The notes beneath the pieces were generated by a model. That model saw only the letters and a program-made list of their open reading frames with translations. It was not told where the DNA came from and did no database searches. Of a stretch of DNA of 64,000 nt, positions 2,101 through 26,826 are shown piece after piece. The stretch is from an uncultured Candidatus Saccharibacteria bacterium (GTDB lineage: Bacteria; Patescibacteriota; Minisyncoccia; Phycocordibacterales; UBA918), in contig CAZCWH010000001.1 in NCBI GenBank assembly GCA_964502345.1, positions 167 to 64,166 on the forward strand, in the 5' to 3' direction. The position numbers and the translations under genes were made by a program. Position 1 is the stretch's first letter. Every line of letters starts with the position of its first letter.

Positions 2101-4128
2101 CTATTTTGATTTCTTGAGCGACTCAAGTGCACGGATTTCATCTCGGATAATAGCGGCTGTTTCGAAATCAAGTTGCTTAACCGCCTCCTCCATCTGTTCA
2201 CGCTTTTCGATCAGTGTTTGTTTTGGATTCTTACGGTAAAGATCAATATCTACAGCAAGCAGTGTGTCGACGGTCTGCATATGTTCAGTGCGAAGATGCT
2301 CGGTAATGTCTTTAATTTCTTTAGCGATTGTTTGCGGGGTGATATTGTGCTTTTTATTATAGGCGAGTTGTATCTCACGTCTTCGCATTGTCTCATCAAT
2401 TGCATATTTAAGTGCTGGCGTTATTTCATCTGCATAGAGCAAAACTCTACCATTAACATTGCGTGCTGCTCGTCCTATAGTTTGAATAAGTGATGTTTCA
2501 GAACGCAAAAAACCAGCCTTATCTGCATCGAGAATGGCAACGAGCTCAACTTCGGGTAAATCGAGTCCCTCGCGGAGTAAATTGACTCCAACAAGACAAT
2601 CAAAAACACCCTTTCTGAAGTCTGTAAGAATCTGTATTCGCTCGATTGTCTTAATATCACTGTGCAGATACTTTGAATTAATACCTCGCTCAGTAAGAAA
2701 TTCAGAAAGATCTTCGGCCATCTGCTTCGTGAGCGTGGTTACAAGCACACGTGTACCACTCGTAATCACTTTTACGGCTTCCTCGATAAAGTCTTTTACT
2801 TGCCCCTTGTAATTTCCTTTCTCAACAATCGGTCGAAGATCTATAATTGGATCAACAAGTCCTGTTGGGCGAATAATCTGTGAGACGATTTCACCCTGTG
2901 CATTGTCAGCATGCGCAAACTCGTACTTCCCTGGTGTTGCAGAAGTATAAATGCACTGCCCCACGCGCTCCTCAAATTCTGAAAAGTTGAGAGGCCGATT
3001 ATCAATAGCACTCGGGAGTCTAAATCCATGTTCAACGAGTGTTACTTTACGTGAACGATCGCCTGCGTACATACCACCAAGTTGAGGAATGGTCACATGT
3101 GATTCATCAATAATCGTAAGAAAATCAGGAGTACCGTCAGCCTTGTGTGGAAAGTATGAGAGGAGCGTATAGGGTGCTTCTCCTTCTTTTCTTCCATCAA
3201 AATGGCGTGAGTAATTTTCGATACCATTGCAATAGCCAATTTCACGGATAAGTGCGAGATCATGTTCCGTTCTTCGCTTAATACGTTGTGCTTCTATGAG
3301 CTTCTCTTCCTTCTTAAACTTCTTGAGTTGCAAATCAAGCTCAAGCTTAATATCTGCCATAGCTCGCTTGCGCTCATCTTCTGGGGTAACAAAGTGCTTG
3401 GCAGGAAAAAGAAAGAAGACGTCACTTTCTTCAATAATTGCTCGTGAGACGGCATCAATCTTTGTAATGTCGCTTATTTCGTTCCCTTTAAAACCTAAAC
3501 GGAAGATGACTCGCTCATTGGTTGGCATAATTTCAACAGTATTTCCAACAGCTCTAAAGTGTCCTGGGGTTAAATCAGCATTTGTTCTTTCAAAATACAT
3601 CGAGACAAGTAATCTGAGCATTTCAGCGCGTGATATAGAAAAGCCACGCGTGATTTTCTTATGTACTTTCTCATACTCGATTGGTGAACCGAGCCCGTAA
3701 ATACATGACACGGAGGCAACTATGATGACATCCTTGCGTGTGAGTAAGGCCTGAGTCGAAGCATGTCGTAAGCGGTCAATCTCTTCATTTATCATCGCTT
3801 CTTTTTCGATGTACGTATCAGAAATTGGCATGTATGCCTCAGGCTGATAATAGTCATAGTATGAAACGAAGTAGTGAACAGCATTATTTGGGAAGAAATC
3901 TCGATACTCTTGCGCGAGCTGTGCAGCAAGAGTCTTATTGTGTGCAATAACTAGTGTCGGCTTTTGGACATGTGCAATCACATTCGCTGCCGTATAAGTT
4001 TTTCCAGAGCCAGTCACACCAAGTAACGTCTGGTGACGCATACCCGCTTCGTAACCTTTTACCAGCTTTTCTATTGCCTTTGGTTGGTCACCTGCAGGTG
4101 TTTTATCAGTATTAAGCTTGAATTCCAT
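2101..4128 (-). CDS. uvrB: excinuclease ABC subunit B (UvrB)
   Basis: 675 aa with a Walker A motif (GVTGSGKT), helicase motifs, and a C-terminal UVR domain (IRDEIRALESLKK). Full-length UvrB architecture. Confidence 0.95.
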   Translation of the reverse strand: MEFKLNTDKTPAGDQPKAIEKLVKGYEAGMRHQTLLGVTGSGKTYTAANVIAHVQKPTLVIAHNKTLAAQLAQEYRDFFPNNAVHYFVSYYDYYQPEAYMPISDTYIEKEAMINEEIDRLRHASTQALLTRKDVIIVASVSCIYGLGSPIEYEKVHKKITRGFSISRAEMLRLLVSMYFERTNADLTPGHFRAVGNTVEIMPTNERVIFRLGFKGNEISDITKIDAVSRAIIEESDVFFLFPAKHFVTPEDERKRAMADIKLELDLQLKKFKKEEKLIEAQRIKRRTEHDLALIREIGYCNGIENYSRHFDGRKEGEAPYTLLSYFPHKADGTPDFLTIIDESHVTIPQLGGMYAGDRSRKVTLVEHGFRLPSAIDNRPLNFSEFEERVGQCIYTSATPGKYEFAHADNAQGEIVSQIIRPTGLVDPIIDLRPIVEKGNYKGQVKDFIEEAVKVITSGTRVLVTTLTKQMAEDLSEFLTERGINSKYLHSDIKTIERIQILTDFRKGVFDCLVGVNLLREGLDLPEVELVAILDADKAGFLRSETSLIQTIGRAARNVNGRVLLYADEITPALKYAIDETMRRREIQLAYNKKHNITPQTIAKEIKDITEHLRTEHMQTVDTLLAVDIDLYRKNPKQTLIEKREQMEEAVKQLDFETAAIIRDEIRALESLKKSK

Positions 4129-4160
4129 AGTTTTGTGATTTTAACACATCAGAATAGTAA

Positions 4161-4189
4161 TTGACACTATAGCTTTTTTACGACATAAT
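4161..4189 (+). promoter_or_regulatory. sigma70-like promoter, TTGACA-N17-CATAAT
   Basis: -35 TTGACA at 4161-4166, a 17-nt spacer, then -10 CATAAT at 4184-4189. It lies 32 nt upstream of the GTG of the small plus-strand ORF. Confidence 0.4.
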
Positions 4190-4220
4190 AAATTATACGC
4201 TCATTCTGGAGGAACAGGCC

Positions 4221-4400
4221 GTGCTGACGAACATTGCACAGCAACTTGCGGTAGTTAGTTTTGTCCTTTTTGTTCTCCTTACCCCATGTGATTACTTTGG
4301 TTTATCACACTACCTAAAGTGGATGTATTTCACTGCAGTGGTTACTGGCATAGGCGCAGGAGTACTTTTCTTCTGCAACTACCTCCTGCAACGAAAATAA
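4221..4400 (+). CDS. small two-TM membrane protein (59 aa), GTG start
   Basis: GGAGG SD at 4209-4213 sits 7 nt before GTG at 4221. The ORF is VLTNIAQQLAVVSFVLFVLLTPCDYFGLSHYLKWMYFTAVVTGIGAGVLFFCNYLLQRK. It has a promoter upstream and a hairpin plus T-tract downstream. It is not in the ORF track. Confidence 0.45.
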   Translation: MLTNIAQQLAVVSFVLFVLLTPCDYFGLSHYLKWMYFTAVVTGIGAGVLFFCNYLLQRK

Positions 4401-4425
4401 GAAACAAATTACAAGCATGAATGAG

Positions 4426-4455
4426 GCTCCGTCACTGCGGGGCTTTTCTTTATTC
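4426..4455 (+). terminator. intrinsic terminator-like hairpin (GCUCCG/CGGGGC with one G-U wobble) followed by TTTTCTTTATTC
   Basis: stem 4426-4431/4438-4443, 6-nt loop, T-rich tract 4444-4455. The pairing only works in the plus-sense RNA. It overlaps the last codons of tgt. Confidence 0.35.
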
Positions 4456-5643
4456 GGAAAGAATCCTTTCTCTTAGTTTTTTTGTGAAGTTGACGATGAC
4501 GTACAGATTATGAAGAGATGCAAGGTGAGCACCAAGCATTTCATTAGCTCTAAAAAGATGCGCAAGATACGCTCGCGTATAGTGGGTACATACGTAGCAA
4601 TCACATCCTTCATCTGGCTTTCCTAGATCGTTCGTGTACTGTGCATTTTTTAAATTGAGTTTTTTGATTCCCTCATGTGTATGCACATAGATTGCTCCTG
4701 TGCGTGCGATGCGCGTAGGAGCTACACAATCAAATGTGTCACAACCCATACGTACCCCTGCTTCAATATCCTCAGGCTCACCAATACCAAGAAGGTGTCG
4801 AGGCTTGTCTTGAGGGAGTACCTCATTTACAGCTTTCAAAGATCCACCCAAATCCTCCTTACTAAATGAACCGCCAATACCAAATCCATCGAAGTCCATG
4901 TCACTTAAAATGCGTGCACTCTCTTTTCGTAAATCTAAGTGTCGTCCTCCCTGCACCACTCCATAAAGTCCCTGTTTTTGCAGTGCTTCATAGTTACGCT
5001 TATGCGCAAGAATAGAGCGCTTTGCCCAACGATGCGTCCGATTCATCGCTTCTTCTTGGTACTCCCGGGGTGCGGTAGGAGACGTGCATTCATCAAACGC
5101 AACGATGATATCAGCACCTATACTATGCTGAATTTCTATGGAGCGTTCTGCGGTGAACCGATGCATACTCCCATCAATGTGTGATGTGAATGTGACCCCA
5201 TCTTCATCGATGACACAGAGTTTACCGTGGCTCTCCGCAAGTTCTTTTGAGTACACCGTGAGCCCTTCGTCAGCATCTACGGTTTCACCTTTTGCAAACT
5301 TTGTTACTCCTTTACCAAACGCAGCGCCAAGTGAAAATACTTGAAACCCTCCTGAGTCAGTCATCGTTGGGAGCTTCCAGTTAGAAAATGAATGCAGTCC
5401 CCCTGCTTTTTCTATGAGCTCATGCCCAGGCTGAAGATAGAGATGGTAGGTATTTGCGAGCGCCACCTGTGCACCAACATACTCCTCAAGGTCCTCAGGT
5501 TTGAGTGATTTCACCGTCCCCTTTGTACCCACAACAACAAAAGCAGGTGTCAGAATATCACCATGGGGTGTATGAATAACACCAGCCCGTGCAAGAGTGC
5601 CTGGCTGGTGCTTTACTACTTCAAACGTGATGGGTGAAGCCAT
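4450..5643 (-). CDS. tgt: queuine tRNA-ribosyltransferase (tRNA-guanine transglycosylase)
   Basis: 397 aa with a TGT fold and a C-x-C-x2-C...H zinc site (CDCYVCTHY...H). Its ATG overlaps the stop of the upstream FKBP gene as TAATG. Confidence 0.93.
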   Translation of the reverse strand: MASPITFEVVKHQPGTLARAGVIHTPHGDILTPAFVVVGTKGTVKSLKPEDLEEYVGAQVALANTYHLYLQPGHELIEKAGGLHSFSNWKLPTMTDSGGFQVFSLGAAFGKGVTKFAKGETVDADEGLTVYSKELAESHGKLCVIDEDGVTFTSHIDGSMHRFTAERSIEIQHSIGADIIVAFDECTSPTAPREYQEEAMNRTHRWAKRSILAHKRNYEALQKQGLYGVVQGGRHLDLRKESARILSDMDFDGFGIGGSFSKEDLGGSLKAVNEVLPQDKPRHLLGIGEPEDIEAGVRMGCDTFDCVAPTRIARTGAIYVHTHEGIKKLNLKNAQYTNDLGKPDEGCDCYVCTHYTRAYLAHLFRANEMLGAHLASLHNLYVIVNFTKKLRERILSE

Positions 5644-6235: not shown

Positions 6236-6470
6236 ATGCAACCTAAAGCGCAACGACCAAAGGGAGTATGCGTTTGGAAGTACTCCTGTGGTACAACCTA
6301 TTTTTTAAGGAGCCTCTGGCGACTATAAAAATGGAAGTACTCTTGTGGCACAACCTAAAGCGCAACGACCAAAGGGAGTATGCGTTTGGAAGTACTCCTG
6401 TGGTACAACCTGATTTTTAAGGAGCCTCTGGCGACTATAAAAATGGAAGTACTCTTGTGGTACAACCTGA
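6236..6470. repeat. tandem repeat, 2 x 112 bp. Each unit is two ~56-bp half-units ending GGAAGTACTCYTGTGGYACAACCT.
   Basis: direct inspection: acctaaagcgcaacgaccaaagggagtatgcgtttggaagtactcctgtggtacaacctRattttttaaggagcctctggcgactataaaaatggaagtactcttgtggY occurs twice head-to-tail, between the CapA-like and FKBP genes. Confidence 0.8.
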
Positions 6471-8008: not shown

Positions 8009-9127
8009 CTACGTCTTACGGATTTGAGTTGCATACAATTCAATGAGCACTGTGAAGAAACTGAGAATGACTGGTCCAAGTATGAAACCGATAGGGCCAA
8101 AGAGTGCTATTCCTCCAAGCACAGAAAGTAGAATAAGAAATGGGTGCAGTGAGTTTCCACGACTCATCACGTACGGCCCAATGAAATTATCGATAATTCC
8201 AACTGCAAGCACACCCCACAGTGCAACACCCCCCGCAAGAAAATGTGAGCCAGTAACTATGAGATATATAACTGCAGGTATAAAAACTATTGTTGTTCCG
8301 ATGCCAGGTATGAGTGCACCAATAGCAGCAACACTCCCCCACAAGACTGCACGTTCAAATCCAAACATGTACAAACCAATTCCAGTTAAGGTTCCTTGAA
8401 GGAGCGCGACGAGTACCGTACCCAGCGCTACTGACCTCACTGATGTAGCAAGTCGCTTTAGAATGAGTTCATCCTGCACATTCTTAAGTGGACTAATCTT
8501 AACGAGATATGTAGTAAACAATTTGCCATCACGGAAAAAGTAAAAAGAAGCAATGAGTGCAATGAAAAAGAGAAATATGGTCGAAGCAGTACCAGCAAAA
8601 AGACTTACTATGTGAGTTGCTATAAAACTTGCAACTTGCTCTACAAAACTTGCCACATCAAGTGAAAATCCAGGAATGAACTCCTGCATAAATGATTCAA
8701 TCCGTTCAAGCTGTCCCGAGAATGTGAGGTATGTATTTGAATTGAAAAGTGAATACACCGAAAGCGCCTCACGCAGAATGAATGATGCAAGAACTGAGAG
8801 AGGTAACACAACAATGAGAATGACTGAAAGTACCGCAAGGAGTGATGCAACAGTTTTGTTTCCCCGCGGAACAATACTTAAAAGTCGTTCATAGAGTGGG
8901 TAGCAAATAGTCACAATAATCGCCGCAAGTGCGAGTGCTCCACCAAACGGTGCAAACAGCTTCCACATAAGAAATGCAGAACCTACAAGAACTGCAAAGA
9001 AAAATATGTGCTCAATGAGTTTGTCACTTACCATACGATTACTCCTATTGTACATTGTTCGTGAAAAGAAAAAAGCCAAGCGGATGCCTGGCTTTTTCTC
9101 TTTATTCAAAATTCTGCTTAGAAGCAA
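8009..9127 (-). CDS. AI-2E family transporter (PerM/YhhT-like permease)
   Basis: about 8 TM helices with AI-2E-like topology and a Gly-rich C-terminal half. The true start may be the internal Met (MVSDKLIEH...). Confidence 0.65.
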   Translation of the reverse strand: MLLSRILNKEKKPGIRLAFFFSRTMYNRSNRMVSDKLIEHIFFFAVLVGSAFLMWKLFAPFGGALALAAIIVTICYPLYERLLSIVPRGNKTVASLLAVLSVILIVVLPLSVLASFILREALSVYSLFNSNTYLTFSGQLERIESFMQEFIPGFSLDVASFVEQVASFIATHIVSLFAGTASTIFLFFIALIASFYFFRDGKLFTTYLVKISPLKNVQDELILKRLATSVRSVALGTVLVALLQGTLTGIGLYMFGFERAVLWGSVAAIGALIPGIGTTIVFIPAVIYLIVTGSHFLAGGVALWGVLAVGIIDNFIGPYVMSRGNSLHPFLILLSVLGGIALFGPIGFILGPVILSFFTVLIELYATQIRKT

Positions 9128-9396
9128 TCGCAGCTGCTTCTAATGCCTCAAATGTAGCCTTTCCTGCTACATCAGCGGCTTCAAAACTCTGAGTAAAGAG
9201 GTTGGATACGTACCACAGTACGAATATGAATCCTATGGCTCGAAACATAGTAATATTTTTGCAAATGCATGCTTTCTTTGACGAGAAGAAAGCTGAAAAA
9301 ATCGACATTTGCCCGAGCTCTCAAGAACTGTACTTCTACACTCTATTACAAAAACTATTCTTGTAAAGTTTCAAGCAGTAGTATGGACGAGCTCTG

Positions 9397-26471: not shown

Positions 26472-26826
26472 AAAAAACCCATCTCGCTCTAAAGTGACCC
26501 AATGTCACTTTAGAGGAGGTTCTCGATAGTTTAATCCGCCTGAGGGCGGAGAGAACTATCATAGAACCAGAACAGCTTCTGTAAGAAGGTGGCTAGCCAC
26601 CACGAGCTTGGCTTTTCTTTTGAGCAAATCCATTTGCTCAAAAGAAAAACCCGTCTCGTGGTGCGACCCAATTTCTAAGGAGCGAAGCGACTATAGAAAT
26701 GGAAGTACTCCTAGATCAGCTCCGAACATCGCAGAATTCAAACATAGTGTAGCGGGTGGGATAAAAGAAAAACCCGTCTCGTGGTGGGAGATAGGGTTTT
26801 TCTAAACTCTTGTACTGTTGCTTGTT

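Follow-up and report, generated by a model that had tools for sequence, protein, structure and literature searches.

Locus and neighbouring genes

The element described here occupies the spacer between uvrB and tgt (positions 4129-4449, 321 nt) in a 64-kb stretch of DNA, which is referred to as the window in its full length throughout. Both neighbours are encoded on the minus strand and were confirmed by Pfam, in agreement with the location between uvrB and tgt given in an initial sequence-only reading of the region. The spacer contains a small plus-strand open reading frame (ORF) with its own expression signals, and this candidate unit is called the micro-gene below. The features of the region are listed in the order of their coordinates.

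2101-4128, minus strand: uvrB, with the Pfam domains UvrB, UvrB_inter, Helicase_C and UVR; divergent from the micro-gene
4138-4167, minus strand: promoter-like site of uvrB, GTGTCA-18-TAAAAT preceded by a TG
4161-4189, plus strand: predicted sigma-70-type promoter, consisting of TTGACA (4161-4166), a 17-nt spacer and CATAAT (4184-4189), 11 of 12 consensus positions
4208-4212, plus strand: Shine-Dalgarno (SD) sequence GGAGG, 8 nt 5' of the GTG at 4221, by direct reading
4221-4400, plus strand: ORF with a GTG start, 59 codons and a stop, VLTNIAQQLAVVSFVLFVLLTPCDYFGLSHYLKWMYFTAVVTGIGAGVLFFCNYLLQRK, from the ORF list and its translation
4423-4456, plus strand: predicted intrinsic terminator with a stem at 4423-4446 followed by TCTTTATT
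4450-5643, minus strand: tgt (queuine tRNA-ribosyltransferase), Pfam PF01702 with E = 2e-128; convergent with the micro-gene

The uvrB -10 box ends 9 nt ahead of the uvrB ATG, which is a leaderless layout, and the uvrB -35 hexamer overlaps the micro-gene -35 hexamer on the opposite strand, with 5/6 base pairs (4162-4166) in common. Positions 4186-4198 are readable as a -10 box on either strand. At the other end of the spacer, the T-tract of the plus-strand terminator abuts the tgt stop codon (4450-4452). The stretch at 1-2100 was considered as non-coding DNA and rejected as such, since it belongs to an ordinary gene on the minus strand that continues past the start of the window.

Relatives of the Tgt protein come from Patescibacteria MAGs labelled Paceibacteria, Kaiserbacteria or Parcubacteria, and by sequence the host is a Paceibacteria/Kaiserbacteria-like Patescibacteria genome. 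Looking up the exact Tgt, UvrB and FKBP sequences of the window yielded no closer relatives.

Expression signals of the micro-gene

The promoter described in the sequence-only reading, TTGACA-N17-CATAAT on the plus strand at 4161-4189, is present with 11/12 agreement to the consensus and is the sole match of at least 11/12 in 64 kb with both strands counted. Since about 1.4 matches of at least 11/12 are expected by chance in 64 kb on two strands, the promoter by itself is not significant. Given the standard spacing from -10 to +1, transcription would be expected to start near 4197, which gives a predicted leader of ~24 nt. The GGAGG sequence previously placed at 4209-4213 does exist and is located one position earlier, at 4208-4212. 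In the predicted fold of the leader this sequence is exposed in a loop. The GTG start at 4221 and the 59-aa ORF that it opens were found as described, and the ORF extends over 4221-4400.

The terminator stem begins 22 nt past the ORF stop and consists of 10 bp, including 4 G-U pairs, closed by a 4-nt loop. Folded as plus-sense RNA the hairpin reaches -15.4 kcal/mol (z = -2.5), versus -6.1 kcal/mol (z = -0.24) as minus-sense RNA, where the fold is weak because four of the stem pairs are G-U and where no U-tract follows. The earlier statement that the hairpin and U-tract pair only in the plus sense is thereby borne out. The hairpin was also considered as a terminator for tgt and rejected in that role, given the lack of a minus-sense fold and of a U-tract on that side; it is a plus-strand-specific terminator. 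No own-strand terminator is recognisable for tgt at this locus, whereas one is present in several relatives.

The unit was compared with a canonical monocistronic arrangement, defined by a -35/-10 spacer of 16-18 nt, an SD sequence 5-10 nt before the start codon and a GC-rich hairpin followed by a U-tract. At the sequence level the promoter, the SD/start/ORF and the terminator all take this form.

This layout is set among genes that look different. An SD-like motif precedes only 1 of the 29 genes in the window, no minus-strand promoter site in the window matches the sigma-70 consensus at 10/12 positions or better, and many resident genes have a -10-like box immediately 5' of the start codon. 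The same pattern is found in related loci, in which uvrB carries a conserved (G)GTATACT or TATAGT box ending 6-10 nt before the start, and in which -10-like boxes peak at -13/-12 among 568 ORFs. The resident genes thus look mostly leaderless and without SD sequences, to judge from these motifs, and the cassette is for this reason atypical for its host. In the same 568 ORFs, SD 4-mers are mildly enriched at positions -12 to -10 (~3% vs a background of 0.7%). From this positional enrichment it follows that SD-led initiation exists in the lineage as a minority route. A literature search on the use of SD sequences by Patescibacteria gave no useful information.

Joint occurrence of the signals

The probability of obtaining the signals together was estimated with a first-order Markov model built from the composition of the intergenic DNA in the window. 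The training set included the coding stretch 1-2100, which slightly diluted its AT-richness and left the conclusion unchanged. A relaxed set of features was defined as a promoter with at least 10/12 matches, an ORF of at least 40 aa starting 10-80 nt downstream and any properly spaced SD 4-mer; with the terminator not required, the model predicts 9.6e-4 occurrences of this set per 321-nt spacer strand. A strict set, consisting of an 11/12 promoter, GGAGG and an ORF of at least 50 aa, occurred 0 times in 6 Mb of sequence simulated under the same model, again with the terminator not required. A separate terminator scan used criteria that were too loose, with 42 matches on the plus strand and 47 on the minus strand, and was kept out of the statistics.

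The long plus-strand ORFs in the 64 kb are all antisense within minus-strand genes, and no other intergenic ORF in the window combines promoter, SD and terminator signals. The description of the micro-gene as the only plus-strand coding candidate in 64 kb is therefore upheld as far as these scans reach, with no rival intergenic ORF. The window likewise holds no second copy of the cassette. Taken singly the signals are weak evidence; combined they are strong evidence against chance, and the unit is supported as a coherent strand-specific expression cassette, non-random as a set, built round a small two-helix hydrophobic ORF.

The 59-aa peptide and searches for its relatives

The peptide has a GRAVY of 1.04 and two 19-residue hydrophobic windows, which places it in the top 2-3% of the plus-strand ORFs; two or more TM windows occur in only 4 of the 179 plus-strand ORFs of 45-120 aa. 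AlphaFold2 run on the single sequence returned helices at residues 2-25 and 28-58 with a mean pLDDT of 78, a result that adds little because helices are commonly predicted for hydrophobic sequences of any kind. The two TM segments proposed earlier were thus recovered both by the hydrophobic windows and as two AlphaFold2 helices, and the peptide is predicted to be a two-helix membrane hairpin. Its C-terminus is basic (QRK).

Relatives of the peptide were sought in a total search space of ~15 billion proteins, genome, metagenome and viral contigs, phages and plasmids. A word-indexed search of 5.8 billion protein clusters returned no relative, and HMMER against 1.84 billion representatives returned no genuine one; its single match, to P0001 (E = 6e-4), was rejected as a tandem-repeat pseudo-protein in which 17 residues were matched. 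Searches of Pfam, NCBIfam, PHROGs and PADLOC gave nothing above noise, the best PHROG match (E = 0.045) being to a family whose function is unknown. No relative of the peptide turned up when genome, metagenome and viral contigs were scanned with six-frame patterns, and tblastn against phage and plasmid collections found no match. Because no homologue was present in any collection searched, purifying selection on the ORF cannot be shown. The protein collection contains the contig's own Tgt (P0004, 100% identical) and lacks the 59-aa product, so the ORF was evidently not predicted by a gene caller; ORFs of this kind are missed by such programs.

Several other identities for the spacer were examined and set aside. 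A mobile mini-element was rejected, since the spacer has no terminal inverted repeats and its sole flanking direct repeat is 14 nt long with 79% identity, which is chance-like. A class II phage holin, which would have two TM segments, was rejected in view of housekeeping neighbours and of the lack of any match to a phage family, phage record or viral contig. Decayed cargo of the kinds found in relatives (HD_4, IS200-like Y1 transposase, alpha-CTD-like, HTH and the small TM families) was rejected because blastn, tblastx and tblastn detected no similarity to it. A structured RNA was rejected as well: there is no Rfam, tRNA or tmRNA match, and the predicted transcript fold, with z = -1.66, is not unusually structured. 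Rfam gave no match at gathering score anywhere in the window, with only sub-threshold noise in 4000-4600.

The tgt-uvrB junction in related genomes

The order tgt→uvrB is kept in 119 of the 157 related loci, and these 119 represent 108 distinct junctions. The spacer in these junctions varies from -4 to 3194 nt, with 26 junctions at 100 nt or less, 26 at 101-500 nt, 41 at 501-1000 nt and 15 above 1000 nt. Co-oriented HD_4-domain cargo genes are found in at least 18 junctions and opposite-strand genes for IS200-like Y1 transposases in at least 16. The slot also carries three conserved families of small proteins with 1-3 TM segments, of 92-95, 70-72 and 71-87 aa. By these comparisons the junction is a hypervariable, fast-turnover slot for accessory genes across the clade.

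The nearest relatives have Tgt identities of 84-86%, and none carries the 59-aa ORF. Their spacers are occupied as follows.

L152: tgt-uvrB spacer of 44 nt
L153: 120-aa alpha-CTD-like gene (RNA polymerase) in the spacer, opposite strand
L154: HD_4 gene in the spacer
L155: 142-aa HTH gene in the spacer, opposite strand
L156 and L157: 124-aa orphan gene in the spacer, opposite strand

None of this cargo is similar to the spacer of the window at the DNA or protein level. Conservation of the ORF between uvrB and tgt, the check proposed in the sequence-only reading, came out negative, with the ORF in 0 of the 157 related loci and with a 44-nt spacer or unrelated genes in the nearest of them. This absence does not refute a lineage-specific gene, because Tgt identity is only 84-86% and the slot is hypervariable; with such a slot, conservation is unusable as evidence here.

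The relatives nevertheless provide structural comparisons. The cargo genes of L153, L155 and L156/L157 have the same orientation as the micro-gene, convergent on tgt and divergent from uvrB, and in L153 and L156 a hairpin terminator separates the cargo gene from tgt, as it does for the micro-gene. Their products differ from the 59-aa peptide in being soluble and two to three times longer, and are unrelated to it and to one another. A second comparison is provided by the 70-72 aa family (L043, L136, L139 and L140) together with a 71-aa gene in L007, which lie in the same slot and encode proteins of similar size with 1-2 predicted TM windows and basic C-termini. In L043, L139, L140 and L007 the layout is that of the micro-gene, with a TTGACA -35, a -10, an SD leader, a small membrane ORF and a terminator, and the strong terminator sits ahead of a leaderless uvrB promoter. 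These genes lie on the tgt/uvrB strand, whereas the micro-gene is inverted with its own divergent promoter. No homology connects the 70-72 aa family with the micro-ORF (hhalign probability 0.1%), and tblastn with the micro-ORF gave no match with E ≤ 0.1 among the loci carrying the 92-95, 70-72 and 71-87 aa groups. The opposite-strand genes in L153, L155 and L156 and the small membrane genes of the same layout are precedent for a lineage-specific gene at this position.

Alternative explanations

Four alternatives to a lineage-specific gene were weighed. The one that survives best is a non-functional or relic spacer, in which a chance ORF on the T-rich strand, a promoter that is a by-product of the uvrB region and a hairpin left over from largely deleted opposite-strand cargo would make no functional protein. 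A complete orphan ORF that the gene finder does not call is compatible with such a spacer, and one 11/12 promoter per 64 kb equals the chance expectation. The uvrB promoter region is AT-rich and its segment 4186-4198 reads as a -10 on both strands, and SD sequences and canonical -35 boxes are rarely used in this host. Relics are to be expected in a slot with rapid turnover that carries unrelated opposite-strand genes in relatives; the spacer of the window, however, shows no similarity to any relative's cargo gene. There are 178 other plus-strand ORFs of 45-120 aa in the window, yet a two-TM character appears in only ~2% of chance ORFs. Codon usage bears on both sides. The whole-codon score of the ORF is low, ranking at the 2.8th percentile among real gene windows, and is matched by 31% of shadow ORFs, although part of this is explained by membrane-protein composition; the synonymous-only score, from which amino-acid composition is removed, stands at the 24th percentile of real gene windows and exceeds that of 88% of shadow ORFs. 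That a promoter, SD, start, hydrophobic ORF and strand-specific terminator should occur together in the correct order and at the correct distances is also very improbable by chance. A relic is considered unlikely, while being the most probable of the alternatives.

A second alternative places the function in the RNA or in the act of transcription, with the ORF incidental. The product would be a ~260-nt RNA complementary to tgt→uvrB read-through, or the promoter would act by competing with the overlapping uvrB promoter. The divergent -35 hexamers with their 5/6 shared base pairs, and inferred starts that lie ~66-69 bp apart, are consistent with competition, and the lack of an own-sense terminator for tgt, unlike in several relatives, makes antisense read-through plausible. 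The plus-strand terminator suggests in addition that plus-strand transcription is stopped there. An RNA role would, however, need neither a well-placed SD and start codon nor a hydrophobic ORF that fills most of the transcript, and the fold of the transcript is unremarkable and without an Rfam match. Nor is there any conservation against which structure could be tested. This alternative is judged distinctly improbable.

The third alternative is a module like those of type I toxin-antitoxin systems, with a 59-aa membrane-damaging toxin and an antisense RNA supplied by tgt read-through or by an unrecognised small RNA. A single TM helix is the norm among type I toxins, and the known mRNAs for them carry long structured leaders. 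The peptide lies within the range of such toxins in size and hydrophobicity (59 aa and GRAVY 1.04, against ~60 aa or less and hydrophobic), has a basic C-terminus and, like many type I toxins, is an orphan encoded in an intergenic position. TxpA, Hok, TisB and Fst resemble it in being ~60 aa or less, hydrophobic, membrane-targeted, intergenic and often lineage-restricted. Read-through from tgt offers a potential full-length antisense RNA, and the minus strand has a TGTAAT -10-like box immediately beyond the ORF stop. The differences are nevertheless numerous. Unlike the four named toxins, the peptide is two-helix, its leader is short (~24 nt) and unstructured, leaving the SD unsequestered in a loop, and there is no evident gene for an antitoxin RNA; the minus strand of the unit, uvrB promoter aside, contains neither a terminator nor a clear antitoxin promoter. 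Pfam, NCBIfam and PADLOC returned no match to Hok/Gef, Ldr, TisB, Fst, Ibs, TxpA/BsrG or any other toxin family, and an unrestrained toxin expressed from a near-consensus promoter would be lethal. The toxin role suggested in the sequence-only reading was thus not sustained, with no toxin or defence family match, no dedicated antisense RNA gene visible, two helices and a short open leader, and we regard it as very unlikely; the accompanying label of a regulatory micro-protein was unsupported.

The least probable of the alternatives, to which we attach very little credence, is a newborn or newly captured micro-gene wired to DNA-repair control in a Patescibacteria episymbiont, whose promoter would compete with that of uvrB, whose mRNA would be neutralised by tgt→uvrB antisense and whose peptide would be a conditional type I toxin-like membrane effector.

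Proposed function and significance

The explanation favoured here, with moderate confidence, is that the element is a free-standing, lineage-specific gene for an accessory small membrane protein in the hypervariable tgt-uvrB slot. RNA polymerase would start near 4197 and produce a monocistronic mRNA of ~260 nt, onto which ribosomes would load via the SD sequence, using the minority initiation route of the lineage. The product would enter the membrane as a hairpin of two helices, with the basic QRK at its C-terminus, and the terminator would stop micro-gene transcription that would otherwise run antisense into tgt. By analogy with the proteins that relatives encode in the slot, the most likely role of such a protein is to bind or modulate a larger membrane component, and a type I toxin role is less likely than this one.

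Two regulatory side effects involving the neighbours are possible. The micro-gene and uvrB promoters may compete, as their -35 hexamers share base pairs, and read-through from tgt, which has no terminator here, would be antisense to the whole micro-gene mRNA.

Hairpin membrane proteins of ~50-76 aa are known among the Pmp3/YqaE-type proteolipids (PF01679) and CsbA, and in B. subtilis the small membrane protein CsbA is encoded next to uvrB and co-oriented with it. The likeness of the 59-aa peptide to Pmp3/YqaE and CsbA is one of size and topology only, with no Pfam match to either. The csbA gene and the micro-gene both adjoin uvrB, the former co-oriented with it and the latter divergent from it.

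As a single orphan ORF put forward as a candidate gene from sequence alone, the micro-gene is of modest importance. If the peptide is made, it would be one more unannotated, lineage-specific small membrane protein in a Patescibacteria genome, a group for which cell-surface and membrane functions are thought to be important in the episymbiotic lifestyle. The slot appears to gain unrelated small membrane genes repeatedly, SD-led and driven by -35/-10 promoters, amid core genes that are mostly leaderless, and this contrast between SD-led and leaderless genes could help to find recently acquired or newborn genes in Patescibacteria genomes.

Strand bias and start signals

Over the whole window (1-64000) the minus strand carries all credible genes, and the cumulative GC skew declines monotonically. 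Matches to the sigma-70 consensus at 10 or more of 12 positions are depleted over the same interval (4 observed vs ~19 expected), with none found on the coding strand.

Starts lacking a Shine-Dalgarno (SD) sequence are near-universal among the resident genes, an SD-like motif being present at only one of the 29 minus-strand gene starts in the window. Among the related loci L001-L151, SD 4-mers show a positional peak, which is present but small. In many genes, both at the minus-strand starts of the window and in these relatives, the start codon lies 6-10 nt past the end of a -10 box, a layout suggesting that leaderless mRNAs are widespread in the window and its relatives. At the uvrB genes of L001-L151 the box is conserved as (G)GTATACT or TATAGT and likewise ends 6-10 nt before the start.

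Additional open reading frames and repeats

The following features lie elsewhere in the window:

37020-58766, minus strand: giant ORF of 7248 aa
12916-20331, minus strand: giant ORF of 2471 aa
2-2082, minus strand: long ORF downstream of uvrB, open past the window start
9102-9308, minus strand: 68-aa ORF with one hydrophobic segment and -10-like boxes nearby
6239-6462: 112-nt unit repeated twice in tandem (97% identity between copies)
26597-26789: repeated hairpin or terminator-like modules

The ORF at 2-2082 extends beyond the window start and is therefore absent from the ORF listing; it is conserved in relatives by tblastx. Its product is probably a surface protein, since it is rich in Thr/Ser runs. 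The 68-aa ORF, located in the spacer upstream of the gene at 8009-9127, has no Pfam match and may encode another unannotated small membrane protein.

The 112-nt tandem repeat sits within a 359-nt spacer upstream of an FKBP gene. The modules at 26597-26789, in a 355-nt spacer, comprise 32-nt inverted arms with 88% complementarity, together with a direct repeat of 27 nt whose copies are 123 nt apart. They resemble either a stack of bidirectional terminators or a small repeat element.

The tgt→uvrB junction

In L153, a close relative, the following gene is oriented opposite to tgt and uvrB, and its product is essentially an RNA polymerase alpha C-terminal domain (alpha-CTD) alone:

L153 5246-5608, minus strand: free-standing alpha-CTD protein, 120 aa (PF03118, E = 7e-11)

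Across the related loci L001-L157, 108 distinct tgt→uvrB junctions have spacers of -4 to 3194 nt. Their cargo is unrelated, comprising HD_4 genes, IS200-like Y1 transposases, alpha-CTD-like, HTH and orphan genes, and includes three small membrane-protein families. The junction (4129-4449 in the window; downstream of tgt in L001-L157) is a hypervariable accessory slot throughout this Patescibacteria clade.
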